Below are positions 35,976-58,968 of a stretch of DNA of 64,000 nucleotides, in pieces (positions within the stretch are counted from its first letter, which is position 1; each line of letters starts with the position of its first letter). This DNA comes from an uncultured Woeseiaceae bacterium (GTDB lineage Bacteria > Pseudomonadota > Gammaproteobacteria > Steroidobacterales > Woeseiaceae): NCBI GenBank assembly GCA_964403695.1, contig CAYOHF010000001.1:38181-102180 (forward strand), in the 5' to 3' direction. The notes beneath the pieces were generated by a model that was not told the origin of the DNA, made no database searches, and worked only from the letters and a program-made list of their open reading frames with translations. Both the position numbers and the translations under genes were made by a program.

Positions 35976-35989
35976 GGCCTAAAAATTCC

Positions 35990-40463: not shown

Positions 40464-41369
40464 ATGGCCGATATCAGAAACCTGGACCTGAACCTGCTGC
40501 GTGCCCTTAGCGTGTTGCTGGAAGAGCGCAATGTCTCGCGCACAGCTGAACGGTTGCATGTCACCCAGCCTACAGTCAGTGGCATGCTGTCCCGATTGCG
40601 GAATATATTTGGCGATCCACTGTTCGTGCGTACTCAGCGCGGCCTGTTACCAACGCCTCGTGCCGAGGCATTGGCGCCAGCATTACGACAATTGATCACC
40701 GATGCGATAGCGCTGGTTGACCCGGACGAGTTTGTTCCGCAGACCAGCACTGCAACACTATCGGTGTCAGTCAATGACTATATGCAGTCTGTGATGATTG
40801 TGCCGCTGGTCGCAGAGCTTCGACATTCGGCACCAAACATAAAGCTGGCGGTGCGCAACCTTGAGGTCGCAGCGCTCACATCAAAGCTGGCAAGTGGCGA
40901 CATCGACGTGGCTATTACGATTCCCGAGTTTGTCGATCCGTCTCTGCGTACTCAATTTCTGTACCGCGAAGAGTATGTCGCCGTTGTGCGAGAAGAGCAC
41001 CCGATCCGCGCGCGGCGCGTGTCACTGAAACGGTTCCTCGACTATGACCATGTCCTGGTCTCGCCCTCCGATGGATCCTTCGAAGGCCCAACCGATAACG
41101 TGCTCAGAGAACTTGGTAGCAGCCGGCGAGTTGCTCTTTCCGTGCCGAGTTTTTTTATCCTTACCGAGGTGTTGCAGGAAGATGATCTGATTGCGTTCAT
41201 GCCGCGACGCTTGTTCGCAAGGCGGTCGAAAAACCTGAGGATGATCGGAGCGCCTTTCGATGTACCTGGGTTCGATGTCATTGCTGCATGGCATCCACGT
41301 ACTGATTCTGAGTCAGCGCATGTCTGGATGCGCGGACAACTCGCAAAATTGGGCGAGTCGGTCACATAA
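40464..41369 (+). CDS. LysR-family transcriptional regulator
   Basis: The N-terminal HTH LDLNLLRALSVLLEERNVSRTAERLHVTQPTVSGMLSRLR is followed by a LysR substrate-binding domain. 301 aa. Confidence 0.9.
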   Translation: MADIRNLDLNLLRALSVLLEERNVSRTAERLHVTQPTVSGMLSRLRNIFGDPLFVRTQRGLLPTPRAEALAPALRQLITDAIALVDPDEFVPQTSTATLSVSVNDYMQSVMIVPLVAELRHSAPNIKLAVRNLEVAALTSKLASGDIDVAITIPEFVDPSLRTQFLYREEYVAVVREEHPIRARRVSLKRFLDYDHVLVSPSDGSFEGPTDNVLRELGSSRRVALSVPSFFILTEVLQEDDLIAFMPRRLFARRSKNLRMIGAPFDVPGFDVIAAWHPRTDSESAHVWMRGQLAKLGESVT

Positions 41370-42300
41370 CAAACTGAATAACCACGTACAGGATCGCCAG
41401 CGTAACCGCAAAAGCAACAGCGGCCAGGATGATGTTCCTGGTGTTGCCCGGTGGTTTAACTGCTTTGCTGACTCTCGTGGCGCTACCCAATTGATCCGGC
41501 GTCCTGAAGACACACTCAACAGGACCAAAACGAATTCGATCACCATTGTCGAGGTAGCTCATGTTGCTGCGTTTGCCATTGACGAAAGTGCCGTTCGCTG
41601 ACATTTGATCCGTTAATTTCCAGCGCGCTCCATCCTGGGTTAGCTTGGCGTGGACGCCTGAAACGCCTTGTTCTTCGAGCACGATATCGCGATCTGCGTC
41701 GCAGCCGATCGTCCACTCACCTTGCGTGCCTGCCGATTTCAGATTAATCCGGGCACCTGACATGGCGCCGGTTGAGACGATCAGGACAGGAACATTTACG
41801 TCGTCGGCCATTTCACTGACGCCCTGTTCTCCATCCTGCATCATCTGTTTCAGAGCTGCCGAATCGATAAACTCGGTTTTTGGCCCACCAGCCGATTTCT
41901 GATTCGGATCAATCCATGCCGGCCTTTCCCGGATGCCACTGCCATCGACGTCGATGTCCTCAAGTTTTCGCATCACCGTTTGCTGCGAATCGTTGCTGAC
42001 GGTTTGGTCGTAAGGAATCTTGTATTCGAATTCTTCAAGGTCAAAGCGAATCTTGTCGCCTGAGCGGAGCACGACCGAACTCTCGATCCGCTGGTCATTG
42101 ACGAACGTGCCGTTCGACGAACCCAGGTCTTCGAGTTTAAGCTCATTGCCGCTGATACTGAACTTGGCATGTTGCCGCGACGGATGTCCTTCAGTCAGCA
42201 CCAGGCCCGATTCCGCCAGGCGCCCGGCGATAAGGCCGTCGGTCAACACGGTTTCTTCGCCATTACTTGCTTTTTTAAGAATTAATTGTACGTCCGACAT
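41362..42300 (-). CDS. tail-anchored protein with two FHA domains
   Basis: FHA1 is canonical (GR...., SRQHAKF, SSNGTFVND, GDKIRF). FHA2 is near-canonical (IGCDADRDIVL, VSGVHAKL, SANGTFVNG, GDRIRFG). A C-terminal TM helix IILAAVAFAVTLAILYVVIQFV is present. Confidence 0.85.
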   Translation of the reverse strand: MSDVQLILKKASNGEETVLTDGLIAGRLAESGLVLTEGHPSRQHAKFSISGNELKLEDLGSSNGTFVNDQRIESSVVLRSGDKIRFDLEEFEYKIPYDQTVSNDSQQTVMRKLEDIDVDGSGIRERPAWIDPNQKSAGGPKTEFIDSAALKQMMQDGEQGVSEMADDVNVPVLIVSTGAMSGARINLKSAGTQGEWTIGCDADRDIVLEEQGVSGVHAKLTQDGARWKLTDQMSANGTFVNGKRSNMSYLDNGDRIRFGPVECVFRTPDQLGSATRVSKAVKPPGNTRNIILAAVAFAVTLAILYVVIQFVM

Positions 42301-42320: not shown

Positions 42321-43121
42321 CTATTTAACTGCCCACAGTATCAGGGCGAAAATAATTGCCAGTAGCGGCCCCACCACGAATGGCCACCAACGTGCGTTCA
42401 TGACCCGCCACAAATGGCCGAGTCCTTTTGCATCTTTGAATTCAATAATTATGACACTAGTGTTGTCGCGACCGCCATTAGTGATGGCCGCATCGACGAG
42501 TTCATCGACGGCCGACTGCACATGTTCACAGGATGCCAGTATTTCCGCGATTTCTGAATCTTCAAGTTCACCGTTCAGGCCATCGCTGCAGAGCAATATC
42601 CAGTCACCATAACGCAGTGGAACCTCTGTAATTGACGGCATCGGCTCACCGAGCCCCAGTGTTTGCGTGACCAGGTTGCCGCGCGGGTCCGCACGAATCT
42701 GTTCCTCGGTCAGGATATTTTGCGCGCGCAATAATTCATGGAAGGAATGATCGCGGGAAATTTGTGACAGGTCCTTTTTGCGCCACAAGTAGGCACGACT
42801 ATCGCCGACCCAGGATATCTCCGCCAGGTTATCCGCCAGTTTTGCGACAACAATGGTTGTGCCCATGCCTGACAGCGACTGGTCCTTGTCGGCGGCAGCG
42901 ATAATTGCCTCATGGGCGCCAACAATTTGTTCTTCCGTGGATTTATCCGGTGCAGGTTCGAGCAGGCTTTTGCTGGCGGTCTCGCTGGCGGTCTTGCCAT
43001 TGACGTGACCGCCCATTCCATCAGCGACAAACCAGAGTTTGCGCTCCTCATCCCAGCCGATCGAGTCCTCATTCTCGCCACCGCGGCTGCCGACGTCAGT
43101 TTTGGCTGCAAAATTAAGCAT
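42321..43121 (-). CDS. PP2C-family Ser/Thr protein phosphatase with a C-terminal TM anchor
   Basis: TDVGSRGGENEDS, FVADGMGGHVNG, GMGTT, LLCSDGL and GGRDNTSVI are PP2C motifs. The C-terminal helix is WWPFVVGPLLAIIFALILWAV. Confidence 0.88.
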   Translation of the reverse strand: MLNFAAKTDVGSRGGENEDSIGWDEERKLWFVADGMGGHVNGKTASETASKSLLEPAPDKSTEEQIVGAHEAIIAAADKDQSLSGMGTTIVVAKLADNLAEISWVGDSRAYLWRKKDLSQISRDHSFHELLRAQNILTEEQIRADPRGNLVTQTLGLGEPMPSITEVPLRYGDWILLCSDGLNGELEDSEIAEILASCEHVQSAVDELVDAAITNGGRDNTSVIIIEFKDAKGLGHLWRVMNARWWPFVVGPLLAIIFALILWAVK

Positions 43122-43124
43122 CGC

Positions 43125-44441
43125 TCAGAACTGTCCCTGCACGTCTTGTGCGGTTCGGCTGAAAGACGAAGGATTGAATGTCGAATCGTTTTCGACCTCT
43201 TTATATATTCGGTCGAGTGCAGCAGTTTTTTGTTGCCTGTCGCCCAGCGTGTAACTCAGGCTTTCAAGCCCAAGGTACAACTGTTCCGCTGCATTGAAGT
43301 CGTTCATATTTCCACCTGCTGCAGATTGTATGAGTGCACGTCGAACCGCAACAATAGTGTTCTTGTCGAACGGTCGAGTCGACCACTCACTCTTGCGGGT
43401 TTCAAGCCAGGTAATGAGTGCCCGGCTTGTTTGCCGGACACTCGCAATATTTTCCTGGCCTGAACGAACAAACGCAGCAGTGGCAGCGGTCATCTCTGTC
43501 TGTGCAGAGGTCGATTCAATAGTGCCGACGACGGTTTGCAGAATGATCAGGTGCTGATCCTGCAGCCGCGGTGAACCTGGCAATACACCAGGACCAGCTC
43601 GAGCCGGCGTCCAGCGTTTGTCATCCATTTCATGGTGACATCCGTGGCAGTCATATAGTGCGAGTTCCGGGTACAAGCCTTCATTGGGAACAAGCCTTTG
43701 CCCGACAAGATCGAGATAACGGCGAGCGGCTTCAACCTGGCCGGTGAGCCACAAATTGAACCCCGGTATCTCTCCTTTGCGTTGACGATAGTCTTCGTCA
43801 ACGTCGTAGTGAGCCGGCTGGTTGGTTGTGAACGCCTCCAGTTCAAAACTGAGTCGCGGGTGACCGGCACCCATGATGTCGTGACTGGCAAACTTTTCGG
43901 CCGTTCCCATGTGGCATGACAAACACAGCTCTGCCCGGTCGCCCGGTTTTTCGGTCGGATACATTCCTCGCGCAAGGTTGTCGGCGTGCGTTGCTCCTTC
44001 CGCTGCGTGACTCTTGATCCATTCTTCGGCACCACCGTGACAGGCCTCGCAGCCAACGCCATCACTAAGCTGAAACTTGGGGCCACGTTTTTCCCTTGCG
44101 ACGTTGTCCGTATGGCAATCGAGACAAACTTTTGCGGTAGTGGCGCTGCCGAGGCCAAGATAGTCCGCAATCCGTTTCGATTCGTCACTTGTCAGGGTGC
44201 GATACGCCTGCGAGTGTTTGTCGGCACTGGTCCAGATGCGATATTCGTTCAACCAGACATTGATGTCTTTTTGCCGATCCAGTTTTCCGTGACAAACACT
44301 ACTTGCACAACTAGCGGGGCCTAAGTGTATGTTTTGGTTAATTAATGTTTCATCTGCGAATACATTTTCAGCACTTACAGACAGTGCTGCAATCAAGCAC
44401 AGCAGTCGGCAAGTGGCCGTTTTGTAAGTCGCAGCATTCAT
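43125..44441 (-). CDS. periplasmic multihaem c-type cytochrome (cytochrome c554-like family)
   Basis: Signal peptide. Four CXXCH motifs (CLDCH, CEACH, CLSCH, CHGCH) plus one CX4CH (CASSVCH). The segment W.....DKHSQAY is typical of c554-like proteins. Confidence 0.8.
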   Translation of the reverse strand: MNAATYKTATCRLLCLIAALSVSAENVFADETLINQNIHLGPASCASSVCHGKLDRQKDINVWLNEYRIWTSADKHSQAYRTLTSDESKRIADYLGLGSATTAKVCLDCHTDNVAREKRGPKFQLSDGVGCEACHGGAEEWIKSHAAEGATHADNLARGMYPTEKPGDRAELCLSCHMGTAEKFASHDIMGAGHPRLSFELEAFTTNQPAHYDVDEDYRQRKGEIPGFNLWLTGQVEAARRYLDLVGQRLVPNEGLYPELALYDCHGCHHEMDDKRWTPARAGPGVLPGSPRLQDQHLIILQTVVGTIESTSAQTEMTAATAAFVRSGQENIASVRQTSRALITWLETRKSEWSTRPFDKNTIVAVRRALIQSAAGGNMNDFNAAEQLYLGLESLSYTLGDRQQKTAALDRIYKEVENDSTFNPSSFSRTAQDVQGQF

Positions 44442-44446
44442 TTCAT

Positions 44447-47400
44447 TTACTCACCAGCATCGGTCGTCGCGACATCTTCTGGCGCAGTTTCTTTTGCCGC
44501 GTCGTCAACAAACCATGGTTTCCCTGACTCGTCGAGATACAGGCGGCGCATTTCTTCGAGATTCAATGGTCGCGAACCACGTCTGCCGAACACGGCAACC
44601 TGGCCACCAGTTTCGTCAACGCCGCGATCACGTTCAAGGCCGCGCGACAAACTCAATGCCGTCTTCGACGTCTCGTAACTCGCAATGAGGTCAGGCACAG
44701 GCTCCGGACTAAAGCCATAGAACTTCGGCTGCAGATCCGGTGACGTAAGCTGCACTATCTTAATGCCATTTGCGCCATCGGCAACGTAAGCGAATAACGA
44801 TGCGTTGGTTGTTGCAACAACCACATCGCGTGCATCGTTCAATGCACCGTTTGCATCGAACCGGGTGAGCTCAACCAACGCTTCTGGTCGTTCTGCATCC
44901 ACGATAACCAAGCCGTCCGCTCCCGCAGCAATATAGGCATAAGTTCTGGCGACGAATACCTTGTGCGCATTTGAGAGCGCGATCGTGTTGTTTTCGATCA
45001 GCCTCGCGGAGCCAGGATCGGTGACGTCAATGACGCTAAGCCCTGCACCTGAAGTCACAAACAAATAGCGAAACTGCAATACGCTGGCTCTTGCGTCGTC
45101 CAACGCCACCGTCGCGATCAGTTCCGGGTGTAGTGGATCGTCGACACTAATAATTTTTACGCCGCTATCGGTTGTGATGTAAAGGTAGTAACCACCAACC
45201 GTAATGTGCCGTGCACCATTTAGTACGCCATCGGGGTTCCAGCTTAGCGCGCGCTCCAGGTCATTATTGCGTGGCTCACCATCGACCAGTGTGTTGACAT
45301 TGACCAGGATCAGCCCTTCTTCTGCGTCGATGATAAACGCGTAGTCGTAAAGCGGGTGTATTACCTGCTCGAGGTTATCTATCCGCATGAGGTCGCCCTC
45401 ATTGCGCGCCGGATTGATGTTCTGGTTGGTTGGCAGCGCAACACAGGTCGCGTTCTTCGTCTTGATATGGGTGTCCTGTCCTACCGCACTAAATGGTGAT
45501 GAGATGATGCGTTGGGATATGCCTTTATTGGCGATGCCCGCAACGTCATAGACATTGAACCCTTTCTTGCCTTCCGCCACGTACAGATACTCGCCACGTA
45601 ATTGCAGGCACTGCGCCGTGCCTGCGCCGTGCTGATAGGCTTCTTCGAGCTCAGCACCATTATCTAAGTGCTTCTGATAGAAATCCGGATACGCGTAGCG
45701 ATGCAGGTAGCTGCCAATGACCGCCTGCGGCTCTTCCCACTCGGTCACTGTTACCGCGGAAATTTCTCCCTGCCCGCCGACATAAGCATTGAAACCGATG
45801 AAATTGACGAAGTTGGTTCCCTGCGCCAGCAGTTGCGCCATGATGGCATTGTTATCGTTTTCACCCGAGAGATGGCAATCGACACAGGTCTTGGTCTCCG
45901 TCTTGCGTGCCGTATGCGGAAAATGCGGATTAAATGCCTGCGAACTGAAGCCGCTCGCTGAAATCGGTGGCTGCTGCACGTAAATTCTTTCGCGATTTGA
46001 ATTGGTTGAAGACAACACGAGTGCCGAGCTCGAGCGCACTGGCGCTATCTTGCCGCTTTTCGCTTCGCCGCGGCGACCGATGAGGAACATCTGGTCACGT
46101 GCAACCTGTGGATTGTAGGTGGCATAGTTTCTGGATTCGCCACCTTCATAGTGATGGCGGTCTGTCTTCCAGTTCGCCTCAATTGGTAAGTGACAACCAC
46201 CACAACTCGTGGTCCATGACGTATGGCAGGTGTAACACTCGATTTCGTCATTGGAGTGCGCGAGATTATCGGTCGACACATTGGTGCCCCATAGTTGGGT
46301 ACCGGTGTCCTTGCTCATGAGTTTCGCCCGGGCCGCTTTTTCGTTGTAATTCTCATGTCCCGGCGTAACCGAGTCTTTCACCAGGCTGAGTTGCCATTCC
46401 AGTTCCGGGTCGAGCATCGAGCGCTGATACAAAACGTCATTTTGCCATTCGAAGCGGCGTCTGCCGTCGGGCGTACGCAACGCTTCCAGATCAGCACCGC
46501 CGGATAGTGCAGCTGGCCCCGACGTATAAAGGTTTGGATACGACTGCGCGGTACCGTGACAATCTTTGCAATCGACCTCGACCGCGAGCGCTACTTCGCC
46601 GTAGATATGCCCGTTGCCGTGGTTGTCCTGCGAGAAATGACAGTCCACGCAGTGCATGCCGACATCCACATGGATCGACGACATGTGTACTGCCTTGGCG
46701 AATTTTTCCGGGTCCTCATCGCTGACGACTGCACCCTCATCGTCAAGCAGATTTCCTTTCCTGTCGCGCTTGAAAACCGCACGGAAATTCCAGCCATGGC
46801 CATGGTAGTCGGCGAACTGCGTGTCGTTGAGCTCGGAATTCATCTCCGAAACCCGTTTCAGAAATTCGACATCTGCCCAGTTGCCACGCACAGCAGCACC
46901 TTCCGGATTGCGGTCGAGGATTTCACGCTGTTCCGCAATCGTAGGGTACTGTTGTTCCTCCGGCCACATGGCCGGCGCATCCGATTCGTAATCCCACATC
47001 GTGTAGCCGAGGTAGCTGTTCATGAACATGTTCGGCTGATGCATGTGACAAACCATGCACTGGCTGGTCGGTACCGCGCGGGTAAATGTATGTTTCAACG
47101 GATGGCCCGACTCGTCCTTGTTGATGGTCGGATCTACAGTCTGGGTTTTGCCTTCATGACCGAACTGCGCATATACGCCGGAGTGGCGCGGATCGCGGTC
47201 GTTTGCGTAAACGCTGTGACACGATGAGCAACCGGACTGACGATAGTCGCCCGGCTGGTCGTTGGTGCCCATAAACCAGGTGAACGGATCGTTAAGCCGT
47301 GTCTTGGTAATGTTAATCAGAGGCACTGATATGCGTCCCCCCGTTCCCGGTCCACGATTGGATTGGCGAAAGTCCGGCCGGCCCGGTTCTTCGATGCGCT

Positions 47401-48247
47401 GCAACTGGCCGAGGGCATTTGGCAGGCCGGTTTCCGGGAACAGGTTGCTTATGTTGCGGCCACCACGTTCAAAGACCCTGAAAATGTCGCCAGGTTTGAC
47501 GGATTCCCACACCGGCAATGGGTATAAGGCCGGAATAATGCCGGCATCCAGCAGCGCTTGCTTGTGTGCGTCTGCCACGGTTGGTCCATGCAGGATGACC
47601 GGGTTACCATCCTCATCGTACGACTCGCCGAGGATGTAATTCTTGAAAGGCAGAATGCCGTTGTTATAGGCGGCACCGCCCCACAACATTGCGCCCGTCG
47701 CATGCATGCTGCGTATCGAAGCTTCAATTGTCGATTGATGACATGCGCCGCAAGCGTCATTCGCAACGCGGTAGTCCGATGGATTCATGAAGCGAACAAA
47801 CTCACGGCTTTCGCGATTCAGCAACGTATAAGTTCGCTCCGGGTTGGCACTGTGTGGCAGATGCCATGATTCCGGGTACAACGGCAACACGTGTGCTTGT
47901 TCGACTGCCGCCGCGTAATCCGGGCTGCCATGCGTAGTGCCGACGCTAATGGATACTGCGGCATTACCGCCATGGCAATCCGTGCAACCGAGTTGTACAG
48001 CAGGGCTAACATGCATGGACTTGCTGTCGGTCTCCGTGTGACAGGACAAACAACCCCCACTTTTCGCATCTGCGTCGGCTACGGTCTGGTTGGCTGGCGC
48101 CGGGGGCGTCTCTGCATAATCGCGCTTGACCGGTTTTTCACCTTCTGCGGCCGACGCGATCAGGGCGGAAAACAAAACTGACGCCAGTACAAAAGTGCAA
48201 ACCTGCAGCGACATTTTCGGCACACGTTTCATTATTGATCTTTTCAT
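44447..48247 (-). CDS. 1266-aa decahaem c-type cytochrome fused to a C-terminal LVIVD-repeat beta-propeller
   Basis: Signal peptide. Ten CXXCH motifs (CLSCH, CTDCH, CGACH, CSSCH, CMVCH, CVDCH, CKDCH, CYTCH, CGGCH, CVDCH) lie in the first about 830 aa. Six LVIVD-type repeats follow (YLYVAEGKKGFNVYDV, YAFIIDAEEGLILVNV, YLYITTDSGVKIISVDDP, YLFVTSGAGLSVIDVTDP, YAYIAAGADGLVIVDAERP, FAYVADGANGIKIVQLTSP). Confidence 0.85.
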   Translation of the reverse strand: MKRSIMKRVPKMSLQVCTFVLASVLFSALIASAAEGEKPVKRDYAETPPAPANQTVADADAKSGGCLSCHTETDSKSMHVSPAVQLGCTDCHGGNAAVSISVGTTHGSPDYAAAVEQAHVLPLYPESWHLPHSANPERTYTLLNRESREFVRFMNPSDYRVANDACGACHQSTIEASIRSMHATGAMLWGGAAYNNGILPFKNYILGESYDEDGNPVILHGPTVADAHKQALLDAGIIPALYPLPVWESVKPGDIFRVFERGGRNISNLFPETGLPNALGQLQRIEEPGRPDFRQSNRGPGTGGRISVPLINITKTRLNDPFTWFMGTNDQPGDYRQSGCSSCHSVYANDRDPRHSGVYAQFGHEGKTQTVDPTINKDESGHPLKHTFTRAVPTSQCMVCHMHQPNMFMNSYLGYTMWDYESDAPAMWPEEQQYPTIAEQREILDRNPEGAAVRGNWADVEFLKRVSEMNSELNDTQFADYHGHGWNFRAVFKRDRKGNLLDDEGAVVSDEDPEKFAKAVHMSSIHVDVGMHCVDCHFSQDNHGNGHIYGEVALAVEVDCKDCHGTAQSYPNLYTSGPAALSGGADLEALRTPDGRRRFEWQNDVLYQRSMLDPELEWQLSLVKDSVTPGHENYNEKAARAKLMSKDTGTQLWGTNVSTDNLAHSNDEIECYTCHTSWTTSCGGCHLPIEANWKTDRHHYEGGESRNYATYNPQVARDQMFLIGRRGEAKSGKIAPVRSSSALVLSSTNSNRERIYVQQPPISASGFSSQAFNPHFPHTARKTETKTCVDCHLSGENDNNAIMAQLLAQGTNFVNFIGFNAYVGGQGEISAVTVTEWEEPQAVIGSYLHRYAYPDFYQKHLDNGAELEEAYQHGAGTAQCLQLRGEYLYVAEGKKGFNVYDVAGIANKGISQRIISSPFSAVGQDTHIKTKNATCVALPTNQNINPARNEGDLMRIDNLEQVIHPLYDYAFIIDAEEGLILVNVNTLVDGEPRNNDLERALSWNPDGVLNGARHITVGGYYLYITTDSGVKIISVDDPLHPELIATVALDDARASVLQFRYLFVTSGAGLSVIDVTDPGSARLIENNTIALSNAHKVFVARTYAYIAAGADGLVIVDAERPEALVELTRFDANGALNDARDVVVATTNASLFAYVADGANGIKIVQLTSPDLQPKFYGFSPEPVPDLIASYETSKTALSLSRGLERDRGVDETGGQVAVFGRRGSRPLNLEEMRRLYLDESGKPWFVDDAAKETAPEDVATTDAGE

Positions 48248-48262
48248 AATTACACCAGCACT

Positions 48263-50140
48263 CTAGTAAGCCAGCACGAGATTCAGGAGGAAATAACCGG
48301 CGTCTTCATCCGGAAACAGGTCATCGAAGCCATCCTCGGCAATGAGTTGTGCGTACGAGGCACGAACTACAATGTTCTGTGACATGAGCGGTCGGTAGGT
48401 CAGCGACGCAGAAACATCATGACCAATGTGATCGTCGATCTCGGCTTGGTTGCGCGCCGCTTCCAGCACCTCGGTATGTACGAAAAAGAGGCTATTGAAG
48501 TTAAGCGACAAGCGCAGTTTTGGTGTCAGGTCCATGTCCGCACCAAGGCCGACAAGAATGACGCCCGGGTTGGTGAAGTTCGACTGCCCCTGTTCCTTGG
48601 AGGAACGCAAGCTATTCAATACGCCGTTACGACTCGACAATGCGACCCGACCACCACCGATCAGCGGTACAGCCTGACGAATCCAGTAGCTGGTGTCGGC
48701 ACCGGCGAACTGCGGGTTTTCGAAAATCGCGTCAAAACCTGTCGCTTTGTCGTCATACGGATCATCGTCGCCACTACCGTACAGTGCCGAAATGCGTGGC
48801 CGGAACCAGTCAAAGTCCATCGAAAACTCGAGCGCCGCGAAGCCTGCGCTAATTTCCACATCGTCGTCGACAAAAACGCCCGGTGAGATATCACCAAACG
48901 CGTAGTACAGGGACGTCGACATATTCAGGCGCCCAAAATGGCCATCGCCGCTGTAACCGACATAATAAACGTCGTAGTCACGCGGCGTTTCCCGGCCAAA
49001 CGATGCGGGCCTCTGGATGAAGTCGTTTTCATCGAAAAACGACCCCGACCCTTCCCGGTTGCGGTTATAGACAATGGTCGCCTGTGAGGTAAATCCGCGT
49101 ACCGGCATGTCCTGCCAGTAAAGGTTGGCAACGAATACATCATCGTCGCGTATATCCTCACTAACGTCATTCAGGCCACTGTTGGTATCTTTTTCAAGGC
49201 GCCGGAACCACGCGAGGTTGTACTGGAAGATATTGTTGTTCCGGGTGCCGAACAGGCGTACGCCCAGCTGGTTGTCCTGGAAAAGAAAACCGCGAAAATC
49301 GGAAGAGAACGGCTGGATGCCGATACGGATACTGTCGAAATCGTAACGTTCCGATACGTTGCGCAGATGTTTGTCGAAGAAGGCAGCCTGTATACCGACG
49401 TGATTGTCGCTGCGTGTCGTACCGTTTACCGGATTTGCGTTAAGGCCAAGAACTTCATCGATCGACGCATAATTGAAATTGAATACTGGCGTGAAACGAA
49501 ACTCATAGTCAGGTGGTCGGAATACGGTGTCGCCTTTGTAGTAGACAAACTCCGTTGCGAGGTTCTCGACCAGCGCATATTGATCGGCGCTGCCGAAAAC
49601 ATCGATACTGCCTGGCGCATTGGTGCTGCTGCCGCCAACCGGCGTAGGCACTTCGCGGACCTCGTAGACTGAATCCGAAATTATCGTAATGTTGAAAAAT
49701 TTGTCGTCCTTGACCGGCCTGTCGGCCTTGAGGATGTTGCGGTTGTACGGATCCCATATACTTTCGGTGTAGCCAATCGCATCGACTATGCGCCAGCGAT
49801 CGGGCAATGGCACAGAAGACACATAGTCGTTCATGCCTGGTCGTGGCACGGGTGAGGCAGCGTTTCTCGTTCGCTCCGGTCGACCGGCCTGCTCGCGTGT
49901 ATCAAGCGTCAGGTCTGCCCTGCGGCTTGCATCGGACACTTCCGGCGCCGCTGCGGCGTCCTCACCTGCCTGCGGTGCAGCTGGTGCAGGGCAGGGAACC
50001 TCGCTGTATCCGGGTCGGCGGCGGGTAACGATTCGACCATCGTCATCCTGGTAGCAGGTCTCCTGCGCGAGCGCACTCGGTGCTGCGATAAAGCTACTGC
50101 CGGTCGCTATGATGGCTGCTGCGAGAATGCGGTGAATCAT
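48263..50140 (-). CDS. large predicted outer-membrane beta-barrel protein
   Basis: Signal peptide from MIHRILAAAIIATGSSFIAAPSALA. A Pro/Ala-rich linker is followed by about 500 aa with alternating hydrophobic beta-strand periodicity rich in Y/F/G/D/N. The C-terminus is ...YFLLNLVLAY (terminal aromatic). The track start at 50290 would overlap the upstream gene. Confidence 0.6.
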   Translation of the reverse strand: MIHRILAAAIIATGSSFIAAPSALAQETCYQDDDGRIVTRRRPGYSEVPCPAPAAPQAGEDAAAAPEVSDASRRADLTLDTREQAGRPERTRNAASPVPRPGMNDYVSSVPLPDRWRIVDAIGYTESIWDPYNRNILKADRPVKDDKFFNITIISDSVYEVREVPTPVGGSSTNAPGSIDVFGSADQYALVENLATEFVYYKGDTVFRPPDYEFRFTPVFNFNYASIDEVLGLNANPVNGTTRSDNHVGIQAAFFDKHLRNVSERYDFDSIRIGIQPFSSDFRGFLFQDNQLGVRLFGTRNNNIFQYNLAWFRRLEKDTNSGLNDVSEDIRDDDVFVANLYWQDMPVRGFTSQATIVYNRNREGSGSFFDENDFIQRPASFGRETPRDYDVYYVGYSGDGHFGRLNMSTSLYYAFGDISPGVFVDDDVEISAGFAALEFSMDFDWFRPRISALYGSGDDDPYDDKATGFDAIFENPQFAGADTSYWIRQAVPLIGGGRVALSSRNGVLNSLRSSKEQGQSNFTNPGVILVGLGADMDLTPKLRLSLNFNSLFFVHTEVLEAARNQAEIDDHIGHDVSASLTYRPLMSQNIVVRASYAQLIAEDGFDDLFPDEDAGYFLLNLVLAY

Positions 50141-50177: not shown

Positions 50178-52229
50178 CTATTTCGCGTCGCAGACATTGT
50201 CGTCTCCCGTCGCAATAAATGGTGCTTGCGGACATTGCACGTAGCGCAAGCGAACGCCCTGCGGTGTGAGATTGTCCGCACGCCGGTCAATCGGCGCGTT
50301 ACCGACGCCGTTACCGAGTTCCAGACCTGCGTTGTGCAGTCCGAGGAAAGAAATCATGTCGTCCTGGTCGATACCGTCGCCGGATACGCCGATACCACCT
50401 ACCAACGTACCATTTCGATAAATGGGCACACTACCGGGGAAGATCTGCAGGCCATTGCCGACGCGGTTGTTCGTAACAGTCGGGGCGAAGGTCAGGGTAT
50501 TGGGATCAACCAGTTCAACGCCGGCGCAGATCGGCCCGACATCGGCAGCGATAATGCCAGCAGCAAAAAGTACATGCTGCAATACGGCGTTGTATGAGAC
50601 GTCCAGTTGCAGCCCGGTAGAAAACGGGCTCCACTGTCCTGCGGCTTTGCTCAACGGACCCGCTCCGTTGGTATCAATGCCATCCGGGTAGTAAGGCCGC
50701 GACAGGTTGCCGCCGGCACGGTCCGAAAAAGCTACCAGCCCATTGGTCAGTGCATCGGGGTCGCCGAGAAAAGCCTGCAGTGCAGTAACGTAGTCATCGA
50801 TTACAACCGGCAGTGAGAACGCCGGACCAGCATCGCTTGTCGTCAGGTAGCTGACGTCCGGCAGTGCGGTGAGAAAATCCGCTGCGGTCGCGGATGAGAA
50901 AAAAGTTGCTGTACGCGCTTTTTGTAATGAAACGTCGGCACCGAATACCGGCGCGTCGCGACTACGCACCATGCCAAGAATTTCACCCTCGGTGTCGACG
51001 ACTGAAATCGTAACTCGTGCAAAAGTGCTTAATGGCTGGCGAATTTGCGCGCGGGCCCGGGTCGCTACGTCGAGCGCATTGCGCAAGATTGTTGTTACGT
51101 CATTCTGCGTCAGTTCATCGCCTGCGAGCGCCGCGCCATCCGTGCCACCAATCGGCGGATAACGGGGTGTTCCTGCTGAATCGACAAAAACGAACGCATC
51201 CAGGCCGGGAAACAGGTTGGCAGCATCTGGTGCTATGCCAGAGGCGTTTGTGCCAAAAAGTGTTCCGTCACGAATAACACCATCGGTGTAACCGACCACG
51301 CTAAGCAAGGCGCCGGTCGCAACCGGAAGCGTGGCAAAGGCGGGCGCAGATGCCGGATCACTTGCGAGGTCTGAAAATCCAACATCACTAAAACGAAACG
51401 TCTTGCCCTCGACGGTAATCTGGTCGCCACGCCGGTCCTGCGGTGCGGCAAAGCCGAAGGTCGCAGCATAGGCGATCATTTCGTCAGCATCGCGGTCACT
51501 GTCGGTTATGACCGGATCAGCTCCGTAAACGCCATCGGCGATAACGCCGACGCCACCGACCACGGTGCCATCTTTATACAGCGGGAAGCCACCCGGATCC
51601 GCCGCCAGGCCCAGCGGTGATCTGTGAGGGCCTGCACTGACGCCAATACCGTCAAATGGCTGGGTAAAATCGGAACAAGCCAGCTGGCTGAACTGGACGC
51701 CAAACAAGGGTCCGCCAGGTTGAAACTGTTCTCCCGGATTGAAATGGTCCTGCACGATCTGGCTTGCGGTTCGGCTCGAAAACGCATTGCCCTCGGAGGA
51801 CAGGTAGGCACCGGTTACTGCTTTTGCGATTGCTGCGAGGTCATCCAGGTTTGCCGCAACCGGAGCAACCGGCAATAGGATGCCCTCCAGACCCGCGGTG
51901 ACCGGTGTCGCACCGCCGACGCCGGCTGTCGTTGATATCAGTACATCACGATTGGCGGCGTTGCCCATGCGATAAACCGCCAGGACATTGCCAACCCGGT
52001 CAACGACTGCCACGGTAGCTTCAACATTTTGTGCCTGTGCTTCGGCGACTGCTTGTGCAATTACCTGCTCGACATCGGCGACCAGCATTCCGGCAGCCGT
52101 CGCTGCACAATTGCCATCACAATTGTTTCCCGAATCGGTCCCCGCATCGCTACTGGTCGGGCTGCCACCCGAACACGCTGACAGAATAAGAATCCACAGA
52201 GGCAAAAACAGCTTATTGCGATTTTTCAT
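50178..52229 (-). CDS. lipoprotein with two GlcG/HbpS-like (DUF336, haem-binding-type) domains
   Basis: Lipobox LILSACSG. Two copies of the DUF336 pattern are present: (1) VAVVDRVGNVLAVYRM...GGFPLYKDGTVVGGVGVIADG; (2) ISVVDTEGEILGMVRSRDAP.FGADVSLQKARTA..F...GSVPIYRNGTLVGGIGVSGDGIDQDD. Confidence 0.7.
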   Translation of the reverse strand: MKNRNKLFLPLWILILSACSGGSPTSSDAGTDSGNNCDGNCAATAAGMLVADVEQVIAQAVAEAQAQNVEATVAVVDRVGNVLAVYRMGNAANRDVLISTTAGVGGATPVTAGLEGILLPVAPVAANLDDLAAIAKAVTGAYLSSEGNAFSSRTASQIVQDHFNPGEQFQPGGPLFGVQFSQLACSDFTQPFDGIGVSAGPHRSPLGLAADPGGFPLYKDGTVVGGVGVIADGVYGADPVITDSDRDADEMIAYAATFGFAAPQDRRGDQITVEGKTFRFSDVGFSDLASDPASAPAFATLPVATGALLSVVGYTDGVIRDGTLFGTNASGIAPDAANLFPGLDAFVFVDSAGTPRYPPIGGTDGAALAGDELTQNDVTTILRNALDVATRARAQIRQPLSTFARVTISVVDTEGEILGMVRSRDAPVFGADVSLQKARTATFFSSATAADFLTALPDVSYLTTSDAGPAFSLPVVIDDYVTALQAFLGDPDALTNGLVAFSDRAGGNLSRPYYPDGIDTNGAGPLSKAAGQWSPFSTGLQLDVSYNAVLQHVLFAAGIIAADVGPICAGVELVDPNTLTFAPTVTNNRVGNGLQIFPGSVPIYRNGTLVGGIGVSGDGIDQDDMISFLGLHNAGLELGNGVGNAPIDRRADNLTPQGVRLRYVQCPQAPFIATGDDNVCDAK

Positions 52230-53947
52230 GGCTGACTCGTTTCTATAGTGGCGGTGTAGTCACTGGCAAATGGATGATAGGAATGACAATCGATACAACT
52301 TGTCGTCACACGTTCCGGCGTTGGTTTATCGCTGTGGCATGCCAGGCAGGTATCGATGTCCGGAATAAGCAAATCGATGCTCTGCGACGATTGATCGGCG
52401 CCGTGACAAACCAGGCAAGCCGCGTCACCGGTCTTCTCATTCATTACCTGGTGGGAAAGGTGATCGAAGCGGCCCGCGGAAAAATAATCGGTGGCCAGTC
52501 GCACCGGGTGTACCTGGTAGCGCGCATAAATTTCACTGTTCACATGTTCCTCGACGATATGGCAGCTGACACACCCTCTTACCGTGAACTGCTCGCGAAT
52601 ATCCTCTGCCGCCGCCTGCGCTGCACAATTGAACGCGGTATCGACACACTCACGTGTGCTGTTGTCCTTATCGGGAATTCTGCGCCGTACGACGGCCTCC
52701 TGTGGCACGCTCGGATCGCTGAACTTACGCAAATACTGGCCCTCCAGCGCGAACATGACTTCTACCGGCTGACCATGTGGCAAGAGGCGATCCGGCATGG
52801 TCGGGTCAAACGTTAGTTCGTGACACTCAACACATTGCGTTTCCATTGTTATTGGCACGAAATGTTCCCGGTCCAGGGAAAGTTCGTGACAATTTCCGCA
52901 GCCAAGCGGGTTGCCATCGCGCAGGTCGGTAACCAGTTCTGCATCCAGGTGCGTGTCATGCGGAAACTTGAGGTTCGACATTTCTACCGCGTTGCTGACC
53001 GCTTCACTTTGTTCCTGCCACTCGAAAGACAGTCCGGTTCCGGCTCGACTGCTGACTGGTTTCAGCAACGTTGCGGCAAAAGCAGGATGATCGGTCTCGG
53101 AAAAACCTGATACCGACGCAATACTTCCGGCAACTGACAACTGATCGGAATCGATATGACAATCGGTACACAATGAATCCGCGCGAATGATCAGGTGTGG
53201 CTCGGGTTCATTGTGTTCCAGATGACAACTTGCACAGCGGGGCGTCGGCTCGAGTGTACTTATTGCCGCCATCGTGTCGGCATGCACATGATCATTGATG
53301 CGCTCGTGACAATTTAGGCAGGCTGTATCCTGCACGCGCTCGAAATTCTGCATGTGACACTGACGACAGTCATCGCCGATCGCAAGTGTATGTGCCGGAT
53401 GCAAAGGACCGCTGGTCCAGAATGCGTCGCTGGGAATCCAGGCCGTATCCGCAAAGCTGTCATCACCGCTACTTTTGAGAAACATTGGCAGCAGGAACGC
53501 GAGCACGATCAATAGACCCGAGATTGTCCAGGCGGCAGAGCGGATGGAGAACCAGGATTGGTAAAGGTCTGTGCGAAATGCGCTCTCGAAAACGCTGGCA
53601 TCGACATTCGCGTCGAGCTCGATCTGGATACCGTGGTCAAAACCCGCCGGTGCGTCTACGAGCATGAGCCGATTGCCACCGATTTCAATAACGTCCCCGG
53701 TTGACAGCGTTGCCGACGTAAGCTCTTCACCGTTGACCAAAACGTTGTAACCGCGGCGACATTTAATCGCCAGCCCGCCCGGCGCAGCCGTGAGCTCTGC
53801 ATGTTCCGCGCCGACGTTATTCCCCAGCACCTGGATCGAGCGGTCCGGGGCACTGCCGAGCGTAATCGTATCCGCGGAGACTTCGACATCGCGATATTCG
53901 GCAATGCCATCGGCGCTGGGTCTTATTTCTCTTAGCAGTACATCCAC
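52226..53947 (-). CDS. FHA-like domain / single TM / decahaem c-type cytochrome fusion protein
   Basis: The N-terminal about 100 aa have an FHA-like pattern (ITLGSAPDRSIQVL...GAEHAEL....GGLAI......VLVNGEEL....L..GDVIEIGGNRLML). The TM helix is WTISGLLIVLAFLLPMFL. Ten CXXCH motifs follow (CRQCH, CLNCH, CASCH, CTDCH, CGNCH, CVECH, CVSCH, CLVCH, CLACH, CIDCH). Confidence 0.8.
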   Translation of the reverse strand: MDVLLREIRPSADGIAEYRDVEVSADTITLGSAPDRSIQVLGNNVGAEHAELTAAPGGLAIKCRRGYNVLVNGEELTSATLSTGDVIEIGGNRLMLVDAPAGFDHGIQIELDANVDASVFESAFRTDLYQSWFSIRSAAWTISGLLIVLAFLLPMFLKSSGDDSFADTAWIPSDAFWTSGPLHPAHTLAIGDDCRQCHMQNFERVQDTACLNCHERINDHVHADTMAAISTLEPTPRCASCHLEHNEPEPHLIIRADSLCTDCHIDSDQLSVAGSIASVSGFSETDHPAFAATLLKPVSSRAGTGLSFEWQEQSEAVSNAVEMSNLKFPHDTHLDAELVTDLRDGNPLGCGNCHELSLDREHFVPITMETQCVECHELTFDPTMPDRLLPHGQPVEVMFALEGQYLRKFSDPSVPQEAVVRRRIPDKDNSTRECVDTAFNCAAQAAAEDIREQFTVRGCVSCHIVEEHVNSEIYARYQVHPVRLATDYFSAGRFDHLSHQVMNEKTGDAACLVCHGADQSSQSIDLLIPDIDTCLACHSDKPTPERVTTSCIDCHSYHPFASDYTATIETSQP

Positions 53948-53951
53948 GGCA

Positions 53952-54845
53952 TCACCAGTAAATGAACGTCGTGACGATATGAATCACGAGCGCTATGAGA
54001 AGTGCGACTGATATTGGGATATGAATCAGCAGCCAGATCCTGATCCGGCCACGCAGACGAATATCGTGAGAAACCCGGCGCAATACAGCCTGACGCCGGC
54101 AAAAAACTTCGAGAAGCTCCTGTAGTAATTCGGTTTCGGCAACTTTGTTGGTTTTCGGTAAGCGACCCGCAATGAAATCGATGACAGGTTGCTGGTCCCT
54201 GTTACTAACTGGCTTGCCACCGTCGGATCTCGCGCCGGACGATGGCCGTATAAAGAGTGACTGATCCTTGCCAACCAGTTGTGCGTATGCGCCACCGCCA
54301 ATTGCGGTGCGTTCTACGGCACTACGTACTGCCAGGTTGATGTCATCAGGACTTTTTGCGCCGAGTTCGCGGGCGCGATTGTCCAGTGAGAAAAGCTCCG
54401 CGAACAGTGCCGATCGCGACGACCCGGAGCGGTTGGCAGTCATCGAATGCGGGTAGTTGATATAGGTGTAAATGCCGTAGAAACCGCTAAAGATGACGAA
54501 ACACATCATCAGGTAGGCCAGCGAGTGCACGTTCCAGCCCAGCTGCCCGGCGCTGTGCAAAGTTGCGACGATAAGCAACGCAGTCCCGAGGTAAACATGG
54601 GCGGAAGTCCAGCCAGCCACCGAGCCAAGTGACGATGAGTAACTGCGTTTCCTGATGCCCAGCATCAGCAACCAGACAATAAGGAGCGCGCCAACAGTTC
54701 CCAGGACATACCCTTGCCAGGTGCCGCCATTCGCTGGCTGAAAGCCGCCCTGGGTCGAATAAAGTATTGCTGATATCACCACCAGCACCAGTGACCACCA
54801 CAAGTAGCGGTTGTTGGCGTAACGCAGAATGCCAACATGGATCAT
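53952..54845 (-). CDS. integral membrane protein with a di-haem-b-type His-X13-His pair on two helices
   Basis: About 5 TM helices. Helix 3 is SAHVYLGTALLIVATLHS and the last helix is LIHIPISVALLIALVIHI, each with two His exactly 14 positions apart. Its start overlaps the upstream oxidoreductase stop (ATGA at 54842-54845). Confidence 0.7.
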   Translation of the reverse strand: MIHVGILRYANNRYLWWSLVLVVISAILYSTQGGFQPANGGTWQGYVLGTVGALLIVWLLMLGIRKRSYSSSLGSVAGWTSAHVYLGTALLIVATLHSAGQLGWNVHSLAYLMMCFVIFSGFYGIYTYINYPHSMTANRSGSSRSALFAELFSLDNRARELGAKSPDDINLAVRSAVERTAIGGGAYAQLVGKDQSLFIRPSSGARSDGGKPVSNRDQQPVIDFIAGRLPKTNKVAETELLQELLEVFCRRQAVLRRVSHDIRLRGRIRIWLLIHIPISVALLIALVIHIVTTFIYW

Positions 54846-57444: not shown

Positions 57445-58968
57445 CTAGAATTGGCCGCGTAGTCCCACCGAGAAAGTACTGCTGGACATGTGATCGCTAC
57501 CAACCAGGAAATCGAATACGCCATAGAGCTGAATTCGTTGTGAAAACACTGCTGCCAGGCCTACGCCGACCAAGCCAAAGTCGGTATCTATATTGTCACT
57601 GGTCGCCTGGAAGCAGGAGAAACACTGCGCCGTATCGAGGCTGAAAAATCCCGGGCCCGCAGCACCGACGAGGCCCTGATTGGCCAGCAGTTCTTCAACA
57701 GAATACTTGGCGATCAATTTCTGCGGATCGTCGCGGAACTCATGATGCCACTCAGCGCGAAACTGCGGGCTGAGGATGCCGAAACTCTTGCTGAATGCCC
57801 GACTAAATGAAACACCCAGGATAGACTTGAATGAATCCACTGTCTGGTCCGCATAACTCAGGGTCAGGCCGCCACCGGCAGGATCAACCTCAGTGTAGCC
57901 ATCGATGCCAATATCACGGTAGGAGAGGCTGAGTGACGTGGTGATATCCCAGTTGCTCTTGTTCACGTCGTATCCAACGGTCGCGCCGCCGGAAAAGAAA
58001 TCACCGCTTGTGCTGCCTAAAAGCCTCGCGTCAACGCCGGGGCAGGGCGTTGCGATCGGGCATGTATTGGCCGAGGTGTAAAACGCGCTACGATCGGTGT
58101 CACTGTCAAGGCTGCCAAACGACAGGATGCCGTCGAAGTACCAGTTGCCGCTATAAAAAGCGCCGAAAAGCGAACCGCTGGTGCTGTCAACATCGACGCC
58201 GCCACCATTAACATTCACGTTGGTGTCAAACTCCGCTTCGTAATTGTCGGTGCCGATTGATACGCCGATGACACCGGAATTCAGCATGTAATCCAGGCCA
58301 AGGGTGACACTGGTGGCGTCGAAATCGAAGCCGTCTTCGGCATCTGTCTGGTCACGATCACCGGTATTGAAACTGCCTTCGACGAACCAGCCGAGCCGAC
58401 TGCCGGCGACTTCATAGTCACCTGCCGCGCCACCGCCGCTGAGTGATACCTGGTTGTAAGTTGGTGAGTTTTTATCTGGATTGTCGTAGGGGTCAGAGTA
58501 GGCAACACGCCCACCGGCGCCCGCGCTGGTGCCGCCCAAGCGCAACGCGTTCAGCCGGCCTGCAATATTCGAGAACTGCGCATTGGTCACGCGCGTCGAC
58601 ATCGTGCTCTGGCTGAACAGTTCTTCACCGGCGACGTTTTGTACTGCTGAAAGAAGCTCCGGGCTGCTGAGACCGAGGTCGCGTGGTGGTCGATTGCCGG
58701 TAGGGTCTGTTTGCAATGCAACTGCGGTCTGTACCATTTCATTGCAGCGCAGGAACAGGTCGCCTTCCTGACCTTCCAGCGCAAAGCCGCCCTGGCCGGC
58801 AAGCGTTCCACAGGCCCGCTGCACAGCGTTGCCCGTCTGTATCTGAATGTCCGTAGCGCCGTTAGCCGGATCGTTGACGAAGTCCGCCAGGTTTTGAGAA
58901 TACGCTTGTGTCGCGAACATCGCGCAGCAAGAACCCATTATGAAACGGCCTGCCGTTATTATTTTCAT
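57445..58968 (-). CDS. autotransporter-type outer-membrane beta-barrel protein with a short passenger
   Basis: Signal peptide (...CAMFATQAYS), a passenger of about 150 aa, then an autotransporter beta-domain pattern (RLNALRLGG..., GWFVEGSFNTGDRD, ...TLGLDY). The C-terminus is FSVGLRGQF. Confidence 0.7.
   Translation of the reverse strand: MKIITAGRFIMGSCCAMFATQAYSQNLADFVNDPANGATDIQIQTGNAVQRACGTLAGQGGFALEGQEGDLFLRCNEMVQTAVALQTDPTGNRPPRDLGLSSPELLSAVQNVAGEELFSQSTMSTRVTNAQFSNIAGRLNALRLGGTSAGAGGRVAYSDPYDNPDKNSPTYNQVSLSGGGAAGDYEVAGSRLGWFVEGSFNTGDRDQTDAEDGFDFDATSVTLGLDYMLNSGVIGVSIGTDNYEAEFDTNVNVNGGGVDVDSTSGSLFGAFYSGNWYFDGILSFGSLDSDTDRSAFYTSANTCPIATPCPGVDARLLGSTSGDFFSGGATVGYDVNKSNWDITTSLSLSYRDIGIDGYTEVDPAGGGLTLSYADQTVDSFKSILGVSFSRAFSKSFGILSPQFRAEWHHEFRDDPQKLIAKYSVEELLANQGLVGAAGPGFFSLDTAQCFSCFQATSDNIDTDFGLVGVGLAAVFSQRIQLYGVFDFLVGSDHMSSSTFSVGLRGQF

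Follow-up and report, generated by a model that had tools for sequence, protein, structure and literature searches.

A widespread decahaem cytochrome–LVIVD propeller protein paired with a predicted 18-stranded outer-membrane barrel: a possible terminal reductase of a proteobacterial electron-export chain

The 64,000-nucleotide (nt) stretch of DNA analysed here (the window; part of contig CAYOHF010000001.1 from an uncultured Woeseiaceae bacterium) encodes a secreted protein of 1266 amino acids (aa) that joins a decahaem c-type cytochrome domain to a C-terminal LVIVD beta-propeller, and its gene lies directly behind that of a predicted outer-membrane beta-barrel. A protein identical to this gene product is present in public collections, and RLA34778-type proteins from metagenome-assembled genomes (MAGs) of Gammaproteobacteria fall in the same 90%-identity cluster. 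An initial annotation, made from the letters of the DNA, had proposed a giant decahaem cytochrome ending in a six-bladed propeller and an acidic tail. The parts of this protein, here called the target, and of its barrel partner are as follows.

44447-48247, minus strand: decahaem c-type cytochrome with C-terminal LVIVD propeller, 1266 aa, secreted (open reading frame, translation and motif count)
48149-48247, minus strand: Sec signal peptide, aa 1-33, cleavage after ASA (ASA/AEG), no lipobox (read from the sequence)
45872-48052, minus strand: haem domain, with ten CXXCH motifs between aa 66 and 792 and one haem per about 76 aa (motif positions, conservation, AF2 secondary structure)
47330-47476, minus strand: loop aa 258-306, among the most conserved parts of the target, AF2 pLDDT 31-56 (conservation profile against pLDDT)
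44735-45649, minus strand: six LVIVD repeats, aa 867-1171, forming a predicted beta-propeller (Pfam PF08309, repeat hidden Markov model, AF2 pLDDT above 90, Foldseek)
44528-44734, minus strand: conserved C-terminal segment, aa 1172-1240, ...LERDRGVDETGGQ.AVFGRRGSRP... (invariant columns, AF2 DSSP)
44450-44509, minus strand: acidic tail, not conserved in sequence (composition; the family consensus ends in unconserved x)
48263-50140, minus strand: predicted outer-membrane beta-barrel of 625 aa with about 18 strands, AlgE/Occ-like, behind an N-terminal periplasmic extension of 146 aa (AF2, Foldseek, conservation, synteny)

By its motifs and its Sec signal the target is a predicted multihaem c-type cytochrome. 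A script count returned exactly ten CXXCH motifs, the number given in the initial annotation (at aa 66, 88, 166, 340, 397, 533, 560, 671, 682 and 788), where the composition of the protein itself would give 0.014 by chance; the span first given for them, roughly aa 65-830, is too long at its end, as the last motif stops at aa 792. A scan for CXXCK and CX3-4CH variants found none, and apart from C17 of the signal peptide, C880 and C935 every cysteine belongs to a motif. In an alignment of 50 sequences, conservation reaches at least 90% at each of the 20 motif cysteines. Ten motifs are present in 78 of 81 full-length relatives taken from genome loci. To the same degree of conservation, that alignment holds 14 further histidines and four methionines in the haem domain, which are sufficient as ligands for ten six-coordinate haems. 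Relatives also keep the mature N-terminus, AEGEKPV.R.Y..PPAPA.Q. In an AF2 model of aa 34-1233, built on a 50-sequence alignment (pTM 0.81, mean pLDDT 75), a beta-rich insert separates haems 9 and 10. The highly conserved, poorly modelled loop at aa 258-306 may need a partner or a haem in order to fold, and as such is a candidate partner-binding segment.

Family models gave only generic or sub-threshold cytochrome matches to the haem domain (Pfam and NCBIfam), and three sub-fragments of it matched only generic c3, c7, c554 and NrfB-like motif models of Pfam. One recurrent sub-threshold match is to the MtrC/MtrF domain II/IV family (PF22113), which scored 28.4 bits for a cut-off of 30 and covers only aa 64-175. 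The best named-family match of the target is ExtM (NCBIfam NF040943), at 67.7 bits (E 6e-19) for a cut-off of 800 bits. Searching the PDB sequences with the target alone gave zero matches at E values up to 1. The family profile gave weak, non-significant matches to ActA, TvNiR (octahaem nitrite reductase), NrfA and YncE, those to octahaem nitrite reductase (E 0.009) and NrfA (E 0.14-0.2) being confined to haems 6-7.

The six LVIVD repeats recognised in the initial annotation are well supported. Pfam PF08309 matches the whole protein at 49.3 bits and its C-terminal 467 aa at 58.3 bits, in five stretches and with a cut-off of 20.2, and a hidden Markov model built from the repeats of the family locates six of them, at aa 867-908, 947-987, 997-1041, 1041-1081, 1085-1123 and 1126-1171, with a spacing of 40-54 aa and a single gap of 80 aa. 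Since this model was derived from these same repeats, its six matches hold by construction and its value lies in the absence of a seventh, which was not detected by sequence at E values up to 100. The last 400 residues are predicted to be all-beta, mostly at pLDDT above 90, and every one of the top 50 Foldseek matches in the PDB is a beta-propeller (TMt up to 0.68), in agreement with the fold first suggested. Among them are AztD, BamB, BT1954, BT2095, 3dsm, 3u4y, mLST8 and NirN; BT1954 and BT2095 are B12-binding surface proteins of Bacteroides, and the structure of BT2095 is of its complex with its TonB-dependent transporter. As the full-length query returned only propellers among the 50 matches listed, it carries no information on the fold of the haem domain.

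The number of blades is probably seven rather than the six first proposed, six being the count of LVIVD blades. Each LVIVD repeat forms four strands in the model, and DSSP leaves four strands over, one at aa 820-833 and three within aa 1186-1220; further, the highest TM-scores (0.64-0.68) are to proteins which we take to be seven-bladed. On these two grounds the propeller probably consists of six LVIVD blades and one degenerate closing blade, the latter probably made of the conserved segment aa 1172-1240 together with the strand at aa 820-833. The propeller carries invariant D/E/N/K residues and two conserved histidines, H873 and H964, and the tail is indeed acidic, with nine D/E and two K/R in the last 30 residues.

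LVIVD repeats were defined in cell-surface proteins of Methanosarcina acetivorans (PMC2447325), with which the target shares 42-aa repeats above the Pfam cut-off and a beta-propeller fold, and from which it differs in that its repeats are fused to a decahaem domain. Full-text literature searches (LVIVD with multihaem or cytochrome, and accessions) found no description of a decahaem–LVIVD fusion. We considered the uet cluster of Tenderiales as a match and rejected it, as the LVIVD protein there is separate and haem-less. Hydrazine-synthase and cd1-type haem-propeller enzymes differ in domain order and repeat family and were retained as analogies only.

The stop codon of the barrel gene (48263) lies 15 nt from the target start, the gap that the initial annotation had reported. 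Mechanical calling opened the barrel reading frame at a TTG at 50290, with a 113-nt overlap with the preceding HbpS-like gene; the true start is likely the ATG at 50140, which gives a normal signal peptide (MIHRILAAAI...ALA/QE). The AF2 model (pLDDT 65, pTM 0.65) has 18 long strands between aa 147 and 624, and its best Foldseek match is the alginate exporter AlgE (E 3e-15, TMt 0.63-0.66), followed by OccD/OccK, MOMP and chitoporin; MtrB is absent from the 50 matches listed, and no Pfam family matches the barrel even at E 10. In 73 aligned sequences the strands alternate between conserved and variable positions, a pattern typical of a membrane barrel, with the lumen-facing residues conserved. 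Loops L3 (0.85), L4 (0.70) and the 71-residue L7 (0.80) are the best conserved parts of the barrel; the strands score 0.55. L7 (aa 456-526, nt 48563-48775, minus strand) is highly conserved yet modelled at pLDDT below 50, and is a candidate for folding only in a complex. In OprD-type channels L3 and L7 fold into the lumen and form the constriction, so that the conservation of L3, L4 and L7 fits a specific solute channel, with a covered docking surface as the alternative. By standard barrel geometry, 18 strands correspond to a calculated C-alpha diameter of about 33 Å and 26 strands to about 47 Å, and if the loops of the barrel are themselves turned inward, as is probable, little room is left in the lumen for a cytochrome. 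As modelled, the barrel looks like a solute channel and not like an MtrB-type cytochrome sheath, and with such a barrel a haem wire that runs through the outer membrane and ends in a surface head is not the obvious reading.

The barrel gene adjoins the target gene in 78 of 82 related loci, and the pairing is kept in clades where identity has fallen to 40% for the target and 26-31% for the barrel. In two clades at about 40% target identity the pair persists while the other redox partners are replaced. One of these clades (L084) has a divergently transcribed 16-haem cytochrome beside the pair. Judged by gene order, barrel and target are an obligate pair and the core unit of the cluster. An apparent natural fusion of the two (P0289) was rejected as a frameshifted mis-call on a high-GC contig. 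In the other of the two clades, the relative P0212 (L083, 2927-7873) has 28 CXXCH motifs, an 18-haem extension being fused N-terminally to the decahaem–propeller unit, which makes the N-terminus the likely side of electron entry. At that locus a barrel gene lies upstream of P0212 and a gene for a PEGA-domain Ser/Thr kinase downstream.

Relatives of the target are numerous. A word-indexed search returned 7983, and the best 120 of these are all full-length, 70-92% identical and either unnamed or called 'hypothetical'; an exhaustive search of 1.84 billion cluster representatives returned 982 proteins at E values up to 1e-30, among them about 20 full-length clusters (at 50% identity) whose nine or ten motifs keep a conserved spacing. 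With one genome taken per species, 566 of the 600 matching stretches listed contained a confirmed relative, so that the number of species genomes that carry one is at least 566. The initial annotation had held that an architecture both common and functionally assigned would speak against it; common it is, and the names attached to it are all 'hypothetical' or generic. Among the matches listed, the target is 57-75% identical across Alpha-, Beta- and Gammaproteobacteria, and hosts belong to Cellvibrionales, Steroidobacterales, Woeseiaceae, Lysobacterales, Methylococcales, Burkholderiales, Sphingomonadales, Caulobacterales and Rhodospirillales, with a few Acidobacteriota, Myxococcales and Bacteroidia MAGs. 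Among the hosts in culture are Dasania marina, Oceanicoccus sagamiensis, Qipengyuania zhejiangensis, Tsuneonella rigui, Sinimarinibacterium flocculans and Sphingobium herbicidovorans MH, and to judge from their taxa the hosts are mostly ordinary aerobic heterotrophs and not lithotrophs. In S. herbicidovorans MH the target, named 'multiheme c-type cytochrome' by PGAP, is encoded on the 959-kb replicon pMSHV. No other protein of the cluster is as well conserved as the target: in Qipengyuania the target is 57% identical, the barrel 50% and the inner decahaem 27%. A plain Sec signal without a lipid anchor is the rule in the main clade. We considered whether lipid anchoring of the target substitutes for the HbpS-like lipoprotein where this is absent, and rejected it, as main-clade N-termini are of the plain Sec type either way.

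The pair stands within a cluster of further genes.

50178-52229, minus strand: lipoprotein of 683 aa with three HbpS/GlcG-like domains, a haem-binding family (Pfam PF03928, 83 bits, three stretches; lipobox LSAC)
52226-53947, minus strand: inner-membrane decahaem protein with a cytoplasmic FHA domain, one transmembrane helix and ten periplasmic CXXCH motifs (Pfam, motifs, transmembrane segment)
53952-54845, minus strand: membrane protein of 297 aa with invariant histidine pairs H83/H97 and H275/H289 (53-sequence alignment)
54842-57397, minus strand: cytoplasmic protein of 851 aa with an FAD/NAD(P)-binding oxidoreductase domain, two cyclic-nucleotide-binding (cNMP_binding) domains and two [4Fe-4S] ferredoxin clusters (Pfam)
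43125-44441, minus strand: secreted c554-family cytochrome of 438 aa with four CXXCH and one CX4CH (Pfam Cytochrome_C554, 46.8 bits)
42321-43121, minus strand: PP2C-type Ser/Thr phosphatase (Pfam; NCBIfam Stp1, 186 bits for a cut-off of 230)
41362-42300, minus strand: protein with two FHA domains (Pfam FHA, 119 bits, two stretches)

Neighbours were counted by tblastn of the window proteins against the 82 loci, with many misses of the commoner neighbours falling at contig ends. The lipoprotein was found in 64, the c554-like cytochrome in 61, the FHA–decahaem protein in 58, the 851-aa protein in 57 and the 297-aa protein in 54. Wherever lipoprotein, barrel and target all occur, they keep this order on one strand. 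PGAP names the triple HbpS-like lipoprotein of Sphingobium 'heme-binding protein'. The FHA–decahaem protein has a conserved N-terminal domain and retains ten motifs in 55 of 58 relatives. In the 297-aa protein the members of each histidine pair are 14 residues apart, on two transmembrane helices; Pfam gives cytochrome b561 and DUF4405 below threshold only and no match to the Ferric_reduct model, and we infer from the histidine pairs a transmembrane carrier with two stacked haems b. The 851-aa protein has no signal peptide and matches Pyr_redox_2 at 98 bits, cNMP_binding at 116 bits, and Fer4_7 and others. The CX4CH of the c554-like cytochrome is CASSVCH (aa 45-51), and as its motif pattern is kept in 58 of 61 relatives this protein is probably a pentahaem.

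The regulatory genes differ by lineage. PP2C (17 of 82 loci) and the double-FHA protein (13 of 82) are confined to the close gammaproteobacterial clade, in which a Ser/Thr kinase also occurs. A CHASE2 adenylate/guanylate cyclase adjoins the cluster in 12 of the 82 loci, from Alpha-, Beta- and Gammaproteobacteria (L033 17644-19902 and L076 1745-3841 among them, none in this window), which fits the two cyclic-nucleotide-binding domains of the FAD/Fe-S protein. A metallophosphoesterase is next to the cluster in 13 of 82 loci. Scans of the cluster for promoters and terminators gave no excess over shuffled sequence, and no Fur-box-like site with up to three mismatches occurs anywhere in the window. 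An anti-phage defence role, an idea that came from the FHA, PP2C and caspase-like neighbours, was rejected when PADLOC gave generic cNMP-domain matches only.

From the observed domains, haem motifs, propeller fold, barrel type, synteny and distribution we infer a carrier order, an outward direction, a docking role for the propeller and a location for the target. On this proposal, which we hold tentatively and at somewhat less than an even chance, the target would be the terminal reductase, close to the outer membrane, of an electron-export chain that is independent of the quinone pool, and would be held at the barrel by its propeller. Electrons from cytoplasmic NAD(P)H would pass to the FAD and then to the two [4Fe-4S] clusters of the 851-aa protein, a step gated by cyclic nucleotide, and from there to the two haems b of the 297-aa protein and across the inner membrane. 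The haems b would reduce the membrane-anchored decahaem, with its cytoplasmic FHA domain providing phospho-regulation, and this in turn would reduce the c554-like pentahaem, which would deliver electrons to the ten haems of the target, entering at the N-terminal haems. The C-terminal propeller and the conserved C-terminus would tether the target to the 18-stranded channel, probably together with the HbpS-like lipoprotein, and the target would either reduce an acceptor passing through the channel or release a reduced product through it. Of the two possible faces of the outer membrane we favour the periplasmic one, by a modest preference over the cell surface, because Sec and the cytochrome maturation machinery suffice to place the target there, because the barrel is channel-like, and because the target seems too conserved for an exposed protein.

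Several points weigh against this proposal. NAD(P)H is named as the donor on one line of evidence only, thioredoxin-reductase-type Pfam domains. The barrel model is of medium confidence, with loop L7 below pLDDT 50. Conservation of the target is extreme, above that of any other protein of the cluster, and could mark it as a catalyst for a specific substrate and not a relay. Three further points fit surface exposure: its density of about 76 aa per haem matches that of MtrC and OmcA, some distant relatives (P0209, P0215 and P0216) have lipoboxes, and the repeat that makes up its propeller was defined in surface proteins (PMC2447325). These three also speak for a clearly less probable, though still substantial, alternative, the view of the initial annotation, in which the target is a surface-exposed terminal reductase of the MtrC/OmcA kind seated on the extracellular loops of the barrel, its propeller binding a solid or polymeric acceptor such as iron or manganese oxide, humic matter or another cell. 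The recurrent near-threshold match to MtrC/MtrF domain II/IV is consistent with such a location, as are the good propeller matches to BT1954 and BT2095, which are surface proteins of Bacteroides, and the unusual conservation of L3, L4 and L7, which would be expected under a covering partner. However, a barrel of about 33 Å with loops that probably point inward would offer little space for an electron-carrying cytochrome, the cluster contains neither an MtrA-like small decahaem nor type II secretion genes, and the main clade has no lipid anchor. Identity of 57-75% across proteobacterial classes is, moreover, unusual for a protein exposed at the surface.

The conservation of the target, unequalled within the cluster, also speaks for a second alternative, in which the target is a multihaem enzyme on the model of NrfA/ONR/OTR or cd1 NirS. 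A haem or a site in the propeller would then reduce a specific small solute (an oxyanion, a nitrogen or sulphur species, or peroxide) that enters through the channel, and the HbpS-like protein would be a cofactor chaperone. The weak profile matches at haems 6-7 to octahaem nitrite reductase and NrfA point in this direction, as do the resemblance of the barrel to a substrate-specific channel and the invariant D/E/N/K residues and conserved H873 and H964 of the propeller; propeller-plus-haem enzymes are known, and NirN is among the Foldseek matches. In addition, the corresponding protein of the ptd operon discussed below is an NrfA-family pentahaem. We nevertheless consider catalysis of this kind unlikely, as the target has no CXXCK or other atypical motif, its conserved histidines and methionines suffice to make all ten haems six-coordinate, its matches to PDB sequences are non-significant, and its propeller lacks a histidine-rich metal site. 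The 18 haems added in P0212 likewise have the character of a wire.

The direction of electron flow in the proposed export chain follows from bioenergetics: for electrons to reach NAD(P)+ from outside they would have to move against the membrane potential, for which a donor far below -320 mV would be required. This barrier stands in the way of an uptake chain, in which the target would oxidise Fe(II), Mn(II) or a reduced sulphur or nitrogen compound and pass the electrons to the c554-like cytochrome and on to the respiratory chain, as HAO does through c554. A c554-family gene does lie immediately downstream of the target gene, and the hosts are, by their taxa, aerobes that would have oxidases. 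Yet the conserved partners are cytoplasmic FAD/Fe-S and transmembrane haem-b proteins and not a quinone reductase or an oxidase, inward flow to NAD(P)+ is thermodynamically unfavourable, and most hosts are ordinary heterotrophs rather than lithotrophs. We judge uptake to be very improbable.

Outward flow from NAD(P)H through flavin and haems b has a parallel of its own. NADPH oxidase (NOX), ferric reductase (FRE) and bacterial MsrQ, of the ferric-reductase-domain superfamily, carry electrons from NAD(P)H through flavin and two stacked haems b to an acceptor across the membrane, and are tightly controlled through phosphorylation or second messengers. The cluster appears to follow the same logic. 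It differs in that flavin, Fe-S clusters and haems b are on separate, unrelated-looking proteins, in that the 297-aa protein does not match Ferric_reduct, and in that 25 c-type haems lengthen the path to the outer membrane. A more specific form of the comparison, to which we give only a slim chance, makes the cluster a two-membrane counterpart of eukaryotic NADPH oxidase or ferric reductase: upon a cyclic-nucleotide or phosphorylation signal, cytoplasmic NAD(P)H of aerobic heterotrophs would be spent, single electrons would be brought to the outer membrane, and the decahaem–propeller protein there would make superoxide from O2 or reduce Fe(III) for uptake. A bacterial source of extracellular superoxide has been described as a NOX-like, diphenyleneiodonium-sensitive and NAD(P)H-responsive activity, by its responses to inhibitor and cofactor only (PMC13440305; PMC7035516). 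If true, the NOX/FRE-like reading would give a molecular identity to this extracellular superoxide activity of heterotrophs.

The nearest published description of the cluster is the ptdABCDEFG operon of marine UBA11136 Alphaproteobacteria and others, the function of which its authors call completely unknown, and which comprises an FAD/NAD(P) oxidoreductase, a cyclic-nucleotide-binding protein that carries a pair of [4Fe-4S] clusters, the ferric-reductase-like PtdF, a periplasmic decahaem, a tetrahaem and a porin (10.1101/2023.11.21.568154). Compared by architecture only, the inner module and its logic are the same in both, and all parts are present in the cluster of the window and in 54-61 of the 82 loci. 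The outer cytochrome there, PtdA, belongs to the NrfA family and combines five haems with a beta-sandwich, in contrast to the decahaem with an LVIVD propeller found here; PtdC and PtdE are two proteins in that operon and one fused protein in this cluster; and the description of ptd makes no mention of an HbpS-like lipoprotein, FHA or PP2C.

With MtrCAB and Pcc of Shewanella and Geobacter the cluster shares a multihaem chain from inner to outer membrane, a barrel gene beside a decahaem gene and a similar haem density of the terminal protein. It differs from MtrCAB in its barrel, modelled as 18-stranded and AlgE/Occ-like, MtrB having 26 strands, in having no MtrA-like decahaem inserted in the barrel, and in its input, which here is a cytoplasmic flavo-Fe-S protein acting through haem b and there a quinol dehydrogenase (CymA, ImcH, CbcL). 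Here, too, there is no lipoprotein anchor, the hosts are aerobic, and the Pfam MtrC model stays below its cut-off. In the extHIJKLMNOPQS cluster of Geobacter, ExtM is a 12-haem cytochrome and the porin ExtI has been discussed as a possible route for selenite and tellurite (PMC5877670). That cluster is alike in combining multihaem proteins with a non-MtrB porin, and ExtM is a remote relative of the target (67.7 bits as against 800); unlike the target, ExtM has no propeller, and the inner module there is a Rieske/cytochrome b one. The 'EET cluster' of Methylobacter (PMC13322032) was examined and set aside, being of the MtrA/MtrB type and not this cluster.

The kind of system, a multihaem electron pathway across the envelope with an outer-membrane barrel, is thus already known, and what is new relative to every described case is the input module, the barrel type, the fusion of cytochrome and propeller, and the signalling control. 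The system has so far come to notice in an indirect way only, by means of the ptd preprint. Trans-envelope multihaem conduits are known mainly from specialists in metal respiration or metal oxidation and are fed by the quinone pool. The present cluster is spread over hundreds of Alpha-, Beta- and Gammaproteobacteria that are ordinary and for the most part aerobic, with an apparent direct supply from NAD(P)H and apparent wiring to cyclic nucleotides and Ser/Thr phosphorylation. If the chain works as proposed, it would be a regulated export of reducing power by aerobes, with a bearing on iron acquisition, on extracellular reactive oxygen species and, in oxic waters and soils, on the redox cycling of metals and organic matter. 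Hosts amenable to genetics are available for the cluster, so that these questions are directly testable.

Some neighbours of the cluster are recorded here as observations in their own right. On the replicon pMSHV of S. herbicidovorans, which is conjugative, the whole cluster (L085; pMSHV 794270-822178) has two two-partner-secretion transporters of the ShlB/FhaC type and a hypothetical protein of about 2090 aa at its flanks. In the window, a gene for a 912-aa protein with Sel1 repeats and a caspase-like (Peptidase_C14) domain (59100-61838, minus strand) and the gene with which it is paired, for a 507-aa autotransporter beta-domain protein (57445-58968, minus strand), lie directly upstream of the cytochrome cluster. 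This pair recurs as a neighbour: Dasania marina has it immediately downstream of the cluster (L001 18724-21895), and it is present in L012 as well. A few genes downstream of the cluster in the window, two large TPR proteins are encoded (33894-38203, minus strand), one of which (737 aa) has an N-terminal winged-helix Trans_reg_C domain. HemX- and HemY-like genes are present at 15456-17941 (minus strand), about 25 kb from the cytochrome cluster; HemX and HemY are associated with the haem-biosynthesis gene cluster, and this setting looks like ordinary chromosomal context and not an island.

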